Shown piece by piece: positions 46,970 to 63,419 of a stretch of 64,000 bases of DNA. Source of the stretch: an uncultured bacterium (GTDB lineage Bacteria; Patescibacteriota; Minisyncoccia; Phycocordibacterales; CAIZLB01); contig CAIJKW010000018.1 in NCBI GenBank assembly GCA_903821355.1, forward strand, positions 1,453 through 65,452. Direction: 5' to 3'. The notes under the pieces are model-generated. The model saw only the letters and a program-made list of their open reading frames with translations. It was not told where the DNA came from and made no database searches. The position numbers and the translations under genes are program-made. The stretch's first letter is position 1. Each line of letters opens with the position of its first letter.

Positions 46970-47344
46970 ATGGAAATAAAGAACGATTTTAATACTGAAA
47001 ATAAATATCCACCTAAAAATCCTGCTGTAGGGCGGGGTGAAGTTTTTTGGTGCTATCTTGGTATGAATATTGGATCTGAACAAAACGGGGCAGGCAGTGA
47101 TCTGATGAGACCTATGTTGATAATAAACATATTTTCGGAAAATTTCTTTTTGGCCGCGCCACTGACCACTAAAAAACATACTGGTAACTGGTATATAAAG
47201 GTTTCGCTTAATGATTCTTATGTTATTTTAAATCAGATAAGACCAATTGACATAGATAGGTTGAGAGAAAGTATAGGCTACCTACCTGAAGATGAACTAA
47301 GAAATATAATCGATAGTTATATTCAACTTATTAAATATGTATAA
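46970..47344 (+). CDS. MazF/PemK-family endoribonuclease toxin-like protein, no adjacent antitoxin ORF
   Basis: GRGEVFWCYLGMNIGSEQNGAGSDLMRPMLIINIF...LAAPLTTKK...VILNQIRPIDIDRL matches the MazF/PemK fold motifs (GDIxxVDFxPxxGSEQxGxRPxLVxS...TS...DQIRTID..RL). Confidence 0.6.
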   Translation: MEIKNDFNTENKYPPKNPAVGRGEVFWCYLGMNIGSEQNGAGSDLMRPMLIINIFSENFFLAAPLTTKKHTGNWYIKVSLNDSYVILNQIRPIDIDRLRESIGYLPEDELRNIIDSYIQLIKYV

Positions 47345-47554
47345 GGTATAGAACGAAAAAAACACCAAACAAATGGTGCTTTAATCGCTAAATAAAAGTA
47401 TTTGCATACTTTCGGCTGGGTTTCCCCAAAACTGTCCTTAATAAATTGTCATCTGTTGCCTAACGAGTAGGTCAGAATCGAAAAGATTAACATTGAGCTA
47501 ATCTATAAGGTATCTAAAGTTTATCAAAAAGCTTTTGGCTGTCAAGTAAAAGTG

Positions 47555-56295: not shown

Positions 56296-56354
56296 GTGAT
56301 TATGCATAATCACCCCGTGGCGATTTTGAAGAATCGCCTACCGGGTGCTATAAT
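56296..56354. repeat. Palindromic intergenic repeat, copy D, with an extra upstream palindrome and a TATAAT box
   Basis: gtgattatgcataatcac cccgtg GGCGATTTTGAAGAATCGCC TACCGGG tgc TATAAT; the palindrome overlaps a TTGAAG -35-like hexamer. Confidence 0.7.
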
Positions 56355-56362
56355 ATCAAGTA

Positions 56363-56455
56363 ATGTTTGATAAAACTTCATTCACATTAATCATAGGATT
56401 CTTGTTAATTCTACTCTTTGGCTTCGGCATCTTTATTGCTTCAGCAAATCTTTGA
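56363..56455 (+). CDS. Possible leaderless 30-aa hydrophobic peptide (MFDKTSFTLIIGFLLILLFGFGIFIASANL)
   Basis: ATG 8 nt downstream of the TATAAT at 56349-56354 (leaderless geometry); single TM-like peptide; not in the ORF track because of its length. Confidence 0.3.
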   Translation: MFDKTSFTLIIGFLLILLFGFGIFIASANL

Positions 56456-56529
56456 GGTTGAATGTGTCTAAATTTAGAATTTAGAATTTTAAATTTGACA
56501 GATAAATTGTTTTTGATATTATATAGATA

Positions 56530-56691
56530 CAAATGGGATGTCCCACCCGCCCGAGCTCCAAAAGAGCTCGGGCTTAAGGTTTGTCTATTTTATAAGATTT
56601 CTTACGGACGTTCCCGTTTTCCCTTTGTTAACTGGAATTTGCAAGAAAGGGCCTTCACTTGTAAATAGTTATTTACAAGTCGTCTTTTTTT
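56530..56691 (+). ncRNA. Candidate small RNA of about 160 nt, class unknown
   Basis: Promoter TTGACA (56495-56500) -16/17- TATTAT; internal 9-bp hairpin cccgagctc-caaaa-gagctcggg; terminal cttgtaaatag-ttatttacaag hairpin plus TCGTCTTTTTTT; preceded by AATTTAG tandem repeats; only short overlapping ORFs. Confidence 0.4.
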
Positions 56692-56953
56692 ATAAAATAA
56701 CCAAGAAAATAAGGGTTGTTTAGAATTTGACTTGTTTCTATGACTCAATAAATGAATAAGTCTTATTATCAAAAATGGGTAATAATAAAAAATACCAGTC
56801 TTTAGACCTTTGTTCATAGAGGTTTAAAGAATGTCGCATTATCAAAGGCTATGATAATAGAAAAATAGACCTAGTCAATTATAGTGAAACGTAGTTCTAT
56901 AGAAGTCACTCGTTGACTTGGCATTTCAGATATGATACACTATTGTTATAATT

Positions 56954-57568
56954 ATGAAAAGCAAGAATAACCTTATAGAACAGTTAAAAACCTTACCCCA
57001 CTTCAATAAAAACACCATTCATCAGCTTGGGGTACGGTTGGGGTTAAGGGATTCAACGATTGATGTTTATATTAGTCGCTTTTTGAAGTATAAGGAAATT
57101 TATAAGCTTAAAAATGGATTATATGTATCTACTGATTTCTTTGACAAGAATAAAAATGATATTTCTTATTCATTTTACCTTGCTAATATACTTCGTACAC
57201 CATCGTATGTAAGTTCATGGGCAGCACTTCAGTATTATAATTTAACCACAGAAGCTATTCATTCAATTACTTCAGTTACACAGAAAGTGACAAAAGAATA
57301 TCAGACAAGAGCAGGAAATTTTGCATACCAGTCTATAAATAAAGAATTTTTTTCTGATTTCTCGCTTGTAAAAGGAAAGTTTGATTTTTTCATTGCGTCT
57401 CCTTCAAAGGCATTGTTTGATCTATTGTATTTCAGAACTAATCAGTTTAGAGGGCTTTCAATACAAAATATTAAAGCAATAGTAGAGGAGTTACGGATAG
57501 ATATCGATGAGATGGACAAAGAAGAACAGTCAAAATTTTATTTAATGATTAAAAAAACAAATGAGTAA
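56954..57568 (+). CDS. AbiEi-like antitoxin/transcriptional regulator (type IV TA / abortive infection)
   Basis: 204 aa; N-terminal wHTH-like region with LKNGLYV (AbiEi_4 pattern); overlaps the downstream gene by 8 nt. Confidence 0.45.
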   Translation: MKSKNNLIEQLKTLPHFNKNTIHQLGVRLGLRDSTIDVYISRFLKYKEIYKLKNGLYVSTDFFDKNKNDISYSFYLANILRTPSYVSSWAALQYYNLTTEAIHSITSVTQKVTKEYQTRAGNFAYQSINKEFFSDFSLVKGKFDFFIASPSKALFDLLYFRTNQFRGLSIQNIKAIVEELRIDIDEMDKEEQSKFYLMIKKTNE

Positions 57569-58844
57569 ACAAATTAAGACAATTTTAAAGAAAAAACTTG
57601 ATGACCTTGCCTCTTATGGTGAGATTGGCGCAGAGACACGTCGTAATGCACTTAAAGAAGACTTGCAGTTTTATGTTCTCAATTTTATCTATCATCATCC
57701 AGAATACAATAAATGGATTATGTATGGTGGTTCTGCACTCCGTATCGTTCATGGTCTTGATAGAATGTCGGTTGATTTAGATTTTGAAATTTTTCATTCA
57801 ATAACAGATAAATTTTTAGAAGAATTTAAGAAAGAAATTGAAGACCATTTTACAAATACATATGGCGCTGGAGCAGACTTTCTTAATATTAAAATAACCA
57901 CCGGTAGAGGATTGATTCTAAAATTCTATGTTGGCGATGAGTTAAGTTTTGGACATCCTTCAAAACAGGTTCATATAAAAATTGATCTAAATCATTTTGT
58001 AGCGCCTAAAATTGTGACTGAACGTAGACCAATAAATCAGGATCAGCTTTCTTTTGTTATTCTAACTTATAACATGTCGGCTCTTATGGCGAGCAAGCTT
58101 GCCGCCATCTTTCTAAGAGGGACTCGGGGTATTGGTTCTGCTATATATGAGGAAAAAGGGCGTGATATATATGACCTTCTCTGGTACATGAATAAAAAGA
58201 TTGTGCCTGACTTAGATTATCTAGTAGCTAAAGGAATTGACGTAAAGGATCCTCGGATGATCTTTGATAAACTTACAATTCAGATGAGTAAAGTTAGCGA
58301 TGAAAATCTCAAACAGGATCTTCTACCTCTATTTGTCAACAGGGGTTTTATTGAGAGTTGGCTTAAAAATTGGCGTGAAAGTTATTTTAGACTTCTTAAC
58401 GATTATAAAATTCGTACAGTAGCAGGATTAGAAAAAATCGGAATTTATCAGGATTTTTCCTCAGGTAACTTTTCTTTTGTTTATTGGTACAAAACAGAGA
58501 ATGGTGAATTAATTAGAGTTTACTACACTATAAGTGACTACTGGATTGATCTTGCTGAAGGTAATTTGCTAATTGAATCAGATTCAGAATTGGAAAATAA
58601 GATGGAATTTGGTAATAATGCTGGAAGTGGTCGTACATCTTTACAAGATAAGATTAAGCAATATGCAACTTTATTTTATCAGAAAACGGAAAGATACTTA
58701 AAGAAGACGAATAGAATTATGCTTGGAGACAATGTTATTACTAAGGTGATTCGCATGACAGCTGACGGTTTAAATCAGAAAGAACAGATTGTACTTAATA
58801 AATCAGCCCTATTTTCATGTGAGTTAGATGATCTATTGAAGTAA
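57561..58844 (+). CDS. AbiEii/DUF1814-family nucleotidyltransferase toxin-like protein with a C-terminal extension
   Basis: MYGGSALRIVHGLDRMSVDLDFEIF matches the AbiEii GGTAL...R.S.DlDf signature; 427 aa against about 300 aa for typical AbiEii. Confidence 0.6.
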   Translation: MSKQIKTILKKKLDDLASYGEIGAETRRNALKEDLQFYVLNFIYHHPEYNKWIMYGGSALRIVHGLDRMSVDLDFEIFHSITDKFLEEFKKEIEDHFTNTYGAGADFLNIKITTGRGLILKFYVGDELSFGHPSKQVHIKIDLNHFVAPKIVTERRPINQDQLSFVILTYNMSALMASKLAAIFLRGTRGIGSAIYEEKGRDIYDLLWYMNKKIVPDLDYLVAKGIDVKDPRMIFDKLTIQMSKVSDENLKQDLLPLFVNRGFIESWLKNWRESYFRLLNDYKIRTVAGLEKIGIYQDFSSGNFSFVYWYKTENGELIRVYYTISDYWIDLAEGNLLIESDSELENKMEFGNNAGSGRTSLQDKIKQYATLFYQKTERYLKKTNRIMLGDNVITKVIRMTADGLNQKEQIVLNKSALFSCELDDLLK

Positions 58845-58914
58845 AGCAAATCTTTGATTTTTCTTTAGAAATTCTTTATAGAAACTTCATATCTTTTTTC
58901 TATGATGTGAGGAT

Positions 58915-62610: not shown

Positions 62611-62639
62611 AGGGTCATGCAGGAGGTAAATAGCAAAAA

Positions 62640-62924
62640 CAAACTTGCCTTTTTCTCTGCCGTGATGTAATATCTTGCCTAAGACTTCAGATACCATAGG
62701 TGGCGTGATATATCGATATATTAAGCTATAAAATCCTGTGCAGAGGTTGAGAAACAGGACTTACGTTCTATTTTTCAAATACTCCTAAAACTGAAGTCCA
62801 ATGCCAAAAGCGTTGGATTTCTGTTTTTTAGTCAAAGTCTTGGATTCGGCAGGTCTGGCAGGTTTTAAGGTCGAGCGGTTAATCGGTTTCAAATTACAAA
62901 ATAAAACGCATTGCGTTCATTGAT
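62640..62924 (+). promoter_or_regulatory. Putative rplJ leader (L10/L12 autoregulatory leader-like 5' UTR)
   Basis: 285-nt untranslated region upstream of rplJ containing hairpin tccaatgc-caaaa-gcgttgga followed by TTTCTGTTTTTT (attenuator-like). Confidence 0.35.
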
Positions 62925-63419
62925 ATGCCTATACAAAGAGCAAAAAAAGAAGAAATAGTTTCAAAGGTTAAGGAGATTCTTGATTCCCAAAAAAGCTTGG
63001 TGTTTGTGAATTTTCACAAATTGCCAGTTATTGAAACAGGAGAGGTAAGACGTGAACTTAGAGCTCATGAGCTTGGATACTATGTAGCAAAAAAGACCCT
63101 CGTAAAAAAGGCTCTTGCTGACGCAGGTATTAAGGGTGAGCAACCATCATTTGATGGCGAGCTAGCACTAGTTTATGGTAAAGATCTTTTGGCACCAGCC
63201 AGAGAAATTTATGCCTTTCAGAAAAAGATGGATAAAAGAGTTTCAATCTTGGGTGGTATCTTTGATGGAGAATACAAAAACAAGGAAGAGATGGAGTCAA
63301 TTGCTACCATCCCTTCAAAAGAAGGTCTATTGTCTATGTTCCTCAACGTTATCAACTCTCCAATTCAAGGTTTTGTTGTCGCAATAAATGCTATAGCAGA
63401 AAAGAAGGAGTCAAATTAA
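62925..63419 (+). CDS. rplJ: 50S ribosomal protein L10
   Basis: MPIQRAKKEEIVSKVKE start and L10 fold pattern; followed by rplL. Confidence 0.85.
   Translation: MPIQRAKKEEIVSKVKEILDSQKSLVFVNFHKLPVIETGEVRRELRAHELGYYVAKKTLVKKALADAGIKGEQPSFDGELALVYGKDLLAPAREIYAFQKKMDKRVSILGGIFDGEYKNKEEMESIATIPSKEGLLSMFLNVINSPIQGFVVAINAIAEKKESN

Follow-up and report, generated by a model that had tools for sequence, protein, structure and literature searches.

A putative orphan antisense RNA resembling an RNA antitoxin, from a family that faces solitary MazF-like toxin genes in Patescibacteria

The window, i.e. the whole stretch of DNA analysed here, comprises 64,000 nucleotides (nt) from an uncultured member of the Patescibacteriota (contig CAIJKW010000018.1, positions 1,453 to 65,452). 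Towards its right-hand end, a gap upstream of an AbiEi/AbiEii gene pair holds a locus that is probably a small-RNA gene making its own transcript. Comparison with related contigs places the predicted product in an undescribed family of structured antisense RNAs of Saccharibacteria and other Patescibacteria, in which the RNA faces the gene of a solitary MazF-like toxin. Its promoter, conservation, structure and strand, the linkage to toxin genes in relatives and the absence of a toxin from the window are established here. The preferred reading, to which a probability of about 60% is given, is that of an orphan antisense RNA resembling an RNA antitoxin, the toxin gene having been lost from the window. 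The features of the locus are as follows.

56471–56489, plus strand: A/T-rich AATTTAG heptamer repeat upstream of the −35 element, specific to the window.
56495–56522, plus strand: promoter with −35 TTGACA (56495–56500), a 16-nt spacer and the extended −10 TGaTATTAT (56514–56522).
56529–56545, plus strand: predicted transcription start A56529 (seventh base past the −10) and near-invariant 5′ motif ACAAAUGGGAUGUCCCA, from an alignment of 21 sequences.
56534–56537 paired with 56542–56545, plus strand: mini-hairpin P1, inside the 5′ motif region.
56549–56573, plus strand: hairpin P2, a G+C-rich stem of 10 bp with the A-rich pentaloop CAAAA.
56574–56620, minus strand: putative last trace of a lost MazF-like gene, namely its stop-codon position (TAA, 56574–56576) and ~10–15 degenerate C-terminal codons.
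56643–56691, plus strand: intrinsic terminator, with a stem-loop (56657–56680), a U7 tract (56685–56691) and an A-rich run (56643–56652) that can pair with the U-tract.
56529–56691, plus strand: predicted full transcript of ~163 nt, from promoter, fold and terminator predictions.

The original prediction, made from the letters of the window, was of a small RNA bounded by a promoter and a terminator, and this outline stands, since relatives keep the promoter, the predicted start and two hairpins, the latter covarying on the strand that was predicted. The sigma70-type promoter it described matches the consensus at 11 of 12 positions, has a spacer of 16 nt and carries a TG (56514–56515) preceding TATTAT (56517–56522). 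On both strands of the window this is the sole site with at least 11 of 12 matches plus TG, 0.12 being expected from Markov-1 shuffles. The AATTTAG tandem repeat is present as described (Tandem Repeats Finder: period 7, 2.7 copies, 100% matches) and is not conserved in relatives, which have an A-tract at the same place; the UP-element-like role proposed for it is not supported. The GC-rich hairpin of the original prediction is P2 (gcccgagctc-caaaa-gagctcgggc in the window), which is reproduced by single-sequence folds and conserved with compensatory changes; a second one (acggacg/cccgt, 56604–56617) has to be given up, being weak, unused in the minimum-energy fold and without conservation. The terminator is borne out as a 10-bp A/U-rich stem followed by U7 (−15.5 kcal/mol, z = −3.8 with pairing of the A-rich run), even though a simple terminator scan missed it, the inner stem having two G–C pairs. 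No homologue of it exists in any fetched locus, and it is, together with the next ~230 nt, without relatives. Its arrival with the neighbouring AbiE cassette was considered and ruled out, homology of that cassette beginning only at 56923. The whole transcript (56529–56692) folds with −55.7 kcal/mol (z = −5.4), and some early termination past P2, near 56590, is possible.

Relatives are designated below by labels for fetched contigs (L001, etc.) and for proteins (P-numbers). A single-sequence nhmmer search with the window region, which proved reciprocal, recovered the element twice in L005 and also in L001 (E = 1e-15 to 1e-10), on the strand opposite a gene for a PemK/MazF-domain protein of 129 amino acids (aa) and directly past its 3′ end. 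In total, 23 distinct copies are present in Saccharibacteria/Patescibacteria contigs, with several copies per genome at variable places in relatives. The conserved portion is the promoter and the first ~55–75 transcribed bases, and the layout is common to all copies: −35 TTGACA, a TG-extended −10, exactly six bases, the motif ACAAAUGGRUURUYCC, five variable bases, P2 with its A-rich loop and the complement of the toxin stop codon. The 5′ motif is near-invariant, and equally so in the 12 copies retrieved by toxin protein or synteny rather than by motif, whereas P2 varies in sequence with its pairing kept. A leave-one-out profile matches the window at 56529–56582 only (E = 1.4e-12), and covariance model R1 scores the window copy, a member of its training set, at 67 bits, within the range of the toxin-linked copies. 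A relaxed DNA pattern found no element in viral contigs, a stricter one had 0 matches in metagenome and viral contigs, and the gap has no blastn match in collections of plasmids and phages. The module is not described in the literature searched, which covered MazF antisense RNA, solitary toxins, toxin–antitoxin systems and small RNAs of Patescibacteria/Saccharibacteria, and convergent type III systems.

Compensatory base changes in relatives, named with the original prediction as a means of checking it, occur at seven pairs across P1 and P2. In the 21-sequence alignment, 94–97% of the cells of the two hairpins are paired; the covariation score was reached by 0 of 500 shuffles, a control rather than a probability, and slid controls gave 19–58% pairing. 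P2 alone has 92% of its cells paired and compensatory changes at 6 of 10 pairs, while the P1 pair G9–C14 is replaced by A–U in five sequences and by G–U in one and is never broken. On the promoter strand, G·U appositions number 31–46 against 4 for A·C, and therefore the structure is selected in the promoter-strand RNA and not in the toxin mRNA. This asymmetry bears on the proposal that the element acts as DNA (a cassette boundary or recombination site), or as a stabiliser or terminator of the toxin-gene 3′ end, with a fortuitous outward promoter. In favour of it, cassettes that look mobile have the element at their 3′ end, a boundary sequence in which the reverse −35 is included recurs in the L001 arrays, and the hairpins would form on the toxin strand too, in 81–84% of cells. 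Against it, every copy keeps the −35 and the TG-extended −10 at precisely the same distance from the conserved start, no recombinase adjoins the arrays, and in the two relatives scanned the hairpins lack a following U-tract on the toxin strand; together with the G·U excess, this makes a DNA-level role very unlikely. An integron-like attC site was rejected as well, there being no integrase nearby and no R″/R′ box layout, while promoter conservation and G·U asymmetry favour an RNA.

The gap had been described as 718 bp of non-coding DNA covered by overlapping open reading frames (ORFs) of 61–71 aa with implausible composition. The judgement on these frames holds, as coding evidence is lacking, Pfam yields nothing credible for them, and a search of 1.84 billion proteins gives 0 homologues of the 71-aa ORF on the minus strand. 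The gap itself is not wholly non-coding; it contains a conserved ORF for a peptide of 30 aa (56363–56455) with its own promoter. As an observation apart, this hydrophobic peptide (MFDKTSFTLIIGFLLILLFGFGIFIASANL, plus strand) has a TG-extended promoter at 56326–56354 and almost no leader, is 63–70% identical in L001, L003, L004 and L005, always just upstream of a slot of variable cassette content, and has no Pfam or NCBIfam match. Two further coding candidates were rejected. A small protein starting at the AUG at +5 would have 6–35 codons across the family, with changes that are non-synonymous yet compensatory as RNA, and an antisense ORF of ~48–55 codons, open opposite the toxin core in relatives, has no conserved start, mirrors the conservation of the toxin and is absent from the window. 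A conserved coding signal in homologues, which the original prediction had accepted as its refutation, is not seen: variation falls at first and second codon positions and covaries as RNA pairs, and the RNA is therefore non-coding.

Known RNA families do not account for the element. An Rfam search found no match in the window region at the gathering score or at E ≤ 10 and none at E ≤ 1 in the loci of seven relatives, so that the cmscan proposed for the candidate names no family. The size had been thought compatible with 6S RNA, a suggestion that fails: there is no RF00013 match at E ≤ 10, only ~55–75 nt are conserved, and the fold consists of P1, P2, a spacer and a terminator, without the long rod and central bubble of 6S-type structures. 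The resemblance is confined to approximate length, and the family is multi-copy and cassette-linked in relatives. The supposed link to the Abi-like module also lacks support, since the partner in 20 other distinct copies is MazF/PemK-like and never AbiE, and the AbiE cassette has its edge at 56923. A size in the 6S range, a position upstream of AbiEi and the short overlapping ORFs speak for a housekeeping RNA (6S, signal recognition particle RNA, tmRNA, RNase P), for an RNA that leads or regulates the AbiE operon, or for a gene encoding a small protein. All three are nevertheless so improbable as to be almost negligible, given the lack of an Rfam match and the several copies per genome at variable places in relatives for the first, an AbiE cassette that is never a neighbour elsewhere and starts at 56923 with its own promoter for the second, and unconserved ORFs without credible Pfam match or homologue and with anti-coding variation across codon positions for the third.

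The partner of the RNA in relatives is a PemK/MazF-like protein of 129–132 aa (PF02452 at E = 3e-13). Compared with the MazF structures of S. aureus and B. subtilis (MazF/EndoA), the profile of the toxin family aligns over the full domain (E ~1e-6), and the arginine of the RP(V) motif is kept. A search returned 262 toxin homologues at E ≤ 1e-10, and contigs were fetched for part of this set. All 12 distinct toxin genes reached by protein homology or synteny (12/12) carry the RNA, convergent at their 3′ end, although their contexts are unrelated (GatB/GAPDH, EF-P/RecA, S9/GrpE, ABC/LepA, LysE, SecDF/GARS, GyrB/LexA-like and others), and the upstream neighbours of the toxin vary with the context (GatB, S9, EF-P, an ABC ATPase, LysE, SecF, GyrB and others). 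For two held-out toxins, P0041 and P0095 (contexts SecDF/GARS and GyrB/LexA-like), the RNA was correctly predicted by the covariance model. A DNA-pattern scan of metagenomes blind to the toxin added 12 loci, and every pattern-found copy with enough flank adjoins a toxin gene, except for one copy that lies at the end of its contig and, in L023, two additional tandem units. The tally stands at ~19 distinct toxins (≥53% identity), all with the RNA and none without it, against three RNAs without a toxin, namely the window copy and the two L023 units. Protein antitoxins were sought beside the toxins, where no small ORF is conserved and a mazE/pemI-like gene occurs in 0 of 14 contexts. Paralogous toxins (33–44% identity) have convergent RNAs of their own with a different 5′ motif, UACCUUnUAGAUU.

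Within the modules, 50–95 nt separate the RNA start from the stop codon of the toxin gene; the RNA extends from there towards that gene, across P1 and P2, and reaches or enters its 3′ end. In L023 (315–640, minus strand), three tandem RNA genes follow one toxin gene, each with its own promoter, intact P1 and P2 and a differing P2 sequence. In L005a, the toxin gene is split by a frameshift and the RNA is intact. The toxin genes examined for the layout of their start come from L001, L005, L006, L010, L013, L017–L019 and L028–L030. Nearly all have a leaderless-type start, with a TG-extended −10, exactly 6 nt and the start codon (ATG; GTG in one), so that toxin mRNAs appear to be leaderless and would leave little room for control at the 5′ end.

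In the window, no toxin gene or DNA remnant was detected at 56400–57000 by tblastn, blastx or a DNA profile of the toxin gene, and a decayed toxin pseudogene at 56600–56950 was rejected, protein and DNA profiles both being empty there. The same DNA profile does detect a distant MazF-like paralog in the window, at 46970–47344. At the putative trace of the lost gene, blastx gives only positional, non-significant matches to toxin residues 119–129. DNA homology with relatives stops at ~56598–56617, ~70–90 nt past the start, and the module is inverted relative to those of L001 and L005. The window holds no complementary target, the reverse complement of the 5′ motif occurring only at the locus itself. 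Pairing of the RNA in trans with toxin 5′ ends was no better than in shuffled controls, and RNAduplex of the full RNA with the mRNA of the paralog and with the AbiEi 5′ region yielded no informative pairing, its long AU-rich duplexes scoring equal to or worse than those of shuffles. Thus, of the features that mark the family, the window copy has the promoter, the 5′ motif, P1 and P2 but not the adjoining toxin gene, and as far as its sequence tells, it is an orphan member. If it is active at present, it must act in trans, on family toxins that are encoded elsewhere in the genome or arrive on mobile DNA; failing this, it must be a recently orphaned relic.

A separate observation concerns the MazF-like paralog, which is solitary and has a second candidate small RNA convergent to it (47352–47545, minus strand). 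The promoter of this candidate reads TTGACA-16-TAAACT and carries a TG; the candidate also has two GNRA-type hairpins, and its terminator adjoins the stop codon of the toxin gene. Its conservation in L001, L004 and L005 is strong (E = 1e-39 to 1e-20), and its 5′ motif is unlike that of the family studied here.

A possible but somewhat doubtful alternative is a dead relic: the window copy would be left over from a deleted module and, transcribed or not, would no longer serve any function. The toxin gene is gone, no target site is found in the window, the part beyond ~70–90 nt, terminator included, is without relatives, and the slot is a turnover hot spot. On the other hand, its promoter is the best consensus match in the 64 kb, P1 and P2 are perfect and the score of 67 bits falls in the range of linked copies while the adjoining toxin sequence has wholly vanished, a strong terminator closes the unit, and L023 and L005a offer further cases of an RNA retained after loss of the toxin. 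Such an asymmetry, with toxins disappearing while their RNAs persist or multiply, is what an antidote role would lead one to expect, and it favours the antitoxin reading.

From the arrangement of the modules we infer transcription of the RNA, an antitoxin role and a mode of action. The toxin mRNA would in most modules read through the RNA region, as the two relatives scanned show no terminator-like site on the toxin strand ahead of the RNA promoter, and the two transcripts would consequently be complementary. The RNA would be an antidote or negative regulator of the MazF-like toxin, i.e. an RNA antitoxin with a type I-like architecture, which would anneal to the toxin mRNA at its 3′ end and so cause it to be degraded, with convergent transcription adding interference. 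In the window, the toxin gene would have been removed from the hot spot, and the RNA would have kept its near-consensus promoter, P1 and P2 and would run to a private terminator.

Several points weigh against the preferred reading. L017, L018 and L030 have a terminator past P2, and overlap with the toxin transcript may there be limited to this shared terminator, P1 and P2 being antisense only upon readthrough of the toxin mRNA. Cis-antisense pairing does not by itself explain 16 near-invariant 5′ nt across toxins that are 53–80% identical. In the nine copies retrieved by DNA pattern, the invariance is partly imposed by the search pattern. The sample of 23 copies, several of them related, is small, and the shuffle controls are not to be read as probabilities. 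Finally, with no cis target or complementary site in 64 kb, the window RNA may be inactive.

Some of these points turn into arguments for a type III-like alternative, in which the RNA would inhibit the MazF-like protein directly, the single-stranded 5′ ACAAAUGG together with P1 and P2 serving as pseudo-substrate or inhibitor, and convergence would serve co-inheritance only; orphan copies, that of the window included, would be trans-acting anti-addiction RNAs. A near-invariant 5′ motif with a P2 that varies in sequence only is a pattern typical of protein-recognised RNAs. The motif also tracks the toxin subfamily, the RNAs of the paralogs carrying UACCUUnUAGAUU; the orphan tandem units of L023 keep P1 and P2, with G·U pairs, despite P2 sequences unlike that of the cognate unit; and L017-type modules, with a terminator between P2 and the toxin, place both hairpins outside the obligatory overlap. 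ToxN-type type III toxins moreover share the Kid/MazF fold. However, no same-strand repeat array lies upstream of the toxin, as the defining type III layout demands, the toxin belongs to the Pfam family PemK and not to ToxN, and the strict convergent abutment is read more simply as antisense control. Direct protein binding is a serious rival, albeit an unlikely one compared with antisense control. A bolder proposal, rather unlikely too, is that the modules constitute a distinct class in Patescibacteria, in which RNase toxins of type II families (MazF/PemK, possibly NYN) would, being solitary, be held by a convergent, structured, protein-binding RNA antidote with a toxin-recognised 5′ motif and a type I-like gene layout, orphans conferring immunity in trans against toxin cassettes that arrive from outside.

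Comparison with known systems starts with the pemK RNA motif (RF02913), likewise a structured RNA associated with pemK genes. This motif is located in 5′ untranslated regions, on the same strand, and its model finds nothing in the window at E ≤ 10 and nothing in the loci of seven relatives at E ≤ 1. Closer in layout are type I systems with convergent, 3′-overlapping partners, such as txpA/RatA and bsrG/SR4 of B. subtilis and par RNA I/RNA II of E. faecalis. They share with the modules a small structured RNA convergent to the toxin gene and driven by a strong independent promoter, a 3′-end overlap or a shared bidirectional terminator (as in L017-type modules), the lack of a protein antitoxin, and orphan and duplicated antitoxin RNA genes. 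They differ in that the partner here is an RNase of ~130 aa with MazF/PemK fold instead of a hydrophobic peptide of <60 aa, that the RNA 5′ end is near-invariant across lineages and that the window copy lacks a toxin. Complementarity to the toxin mRNA, typical of type I, would follow in relatives from the convergent overlap of the genes; the window has no toxin mRNA.

In type III systems (ToxIN, AbiQ/antiQ, CptIN, TenpIN), the antitoxin consists of ~34–36-nt direct repeats situated upstream on the same strand, separated from the toxin gene by a terminator and processed by the toxin. A Kid/MazF-class endoribonuclease checked by an RNA and the tandem RNA units of L023 recall this arrangement, but the units here have their own promoters and are downstream, convergent and non-repetitive, and near the window copy nothing is repeated except the 7-nt AATTTAG ahead of the promoter. 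Type II MazEF/PemIK systems have toxins of the same family as the relatives (PF02452), yet no co-transcribed protein antitoxin gene stands beside the toxins of the present modules. Control of an enzyme-like toxin by an antisense or partly complementary small RNA has precedents in SymE/SymR (PMC1891008) and RalR/RalA (PMC4041452); SymR overlaps the symE 5′ end (PMC1891008) and RalA acts in trans (PMC4041452), but neither toxin, one with an AbrB/MazE-like fold and the other a DNase, is related to MazF. As aMEF, an antisense RNA of mazEF, shows, antisense RNAs can tune mazF expression; aMEF is reported to stimulate a canonical two-protein operon and does not take the place of the antitoxin (PMC8749433). 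By analogy, then, the layout is nearest to type I with 3′-overlapping antitoxins, the toxin class recalls type III and the toxin family is that of type II.

Toxin–antitoxin classes are defined by the nature of the antidote, and MazF/PemK is the textbook case of a protein antidote. If the preferred reading is true, the MazF fold has been captured by RNA-based control, with no protein partner and always a convergent, covarying small RNA. The family would also provide Saccharibacteria and the candidate phyla radiation (CPR), known for tiny genomes, with a first conserved family of regulatory RNAs, as no described example was found among their small RNAs. For annotation, it would explain the recurrent ‘empty’ gap of ~100–250 bp past these MazF-like genes.

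The surroundings of the window copy flag a chromosomal site where MazF, NYN and AbiE cassettes are exchanged. A scan with the 635-aa peptidoglycan-binding protein encoded upstream found five contigs of uncultured bacteria, one of them labelled Candidatus Saccharibacteria, and the window is taken to belong to the same lineage. The gene order FtsK, p308, p635, 30-aa peptide, variable slot, 1231-aa LCAT-like protein, L10 is kept. Neither of the two window proteins encoded upstream has an identical entry among recorded proteins. To judge from its contents, listed below, the variable slot, flanked by the genes for the 30-aa peptide and the LCAT-like protein, is a hot spot of toxin and defence cassettes.

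L003 and L004: slot empty.
L005, 10580–11800: two MazF-like modules.
L001, 13150–15500: PemK, NYN and PemK cassettes.
Window, 56456–58914: candidate RNA and AbiEi/AbiEii.
Window, 56923–58845, plus strand: AbiEi/AbiEii cassette, with 82% DNA identity to L035–L037 (other candidate-phyla bacteria) between these bounds only.

Each cassette of L001 and L005 is preceded by a promoter-like motif (…CTTTGG..TTCTTTAGAA…), which also precedes the LCAT-like gene, and the RNase cassettes are each followed by a convergent TTGACA/TG-10 promoter. The AbiE cassette of the window has a sharp edge at 56923, ~230 nt beyond the RNA terminator, and its own promoter. In L035–L037, it lies near mobile-element genes and divergent from them, with a serine recombinase ~2.3 kb off. 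AbiEi is 80–90% identical across many CPR phyla, a level that suggests recent horizontal spread, and AbiEii is long (427 aa). Further downstream, the stretch ahead of rplJ (62611–62924; rplJ at 62925–63419) gives no match to the Rfam L10 leader in a whole-window scan at gathering scores, and the sole Rfam matches in the 64 kb are six dispersed tRNA genes.
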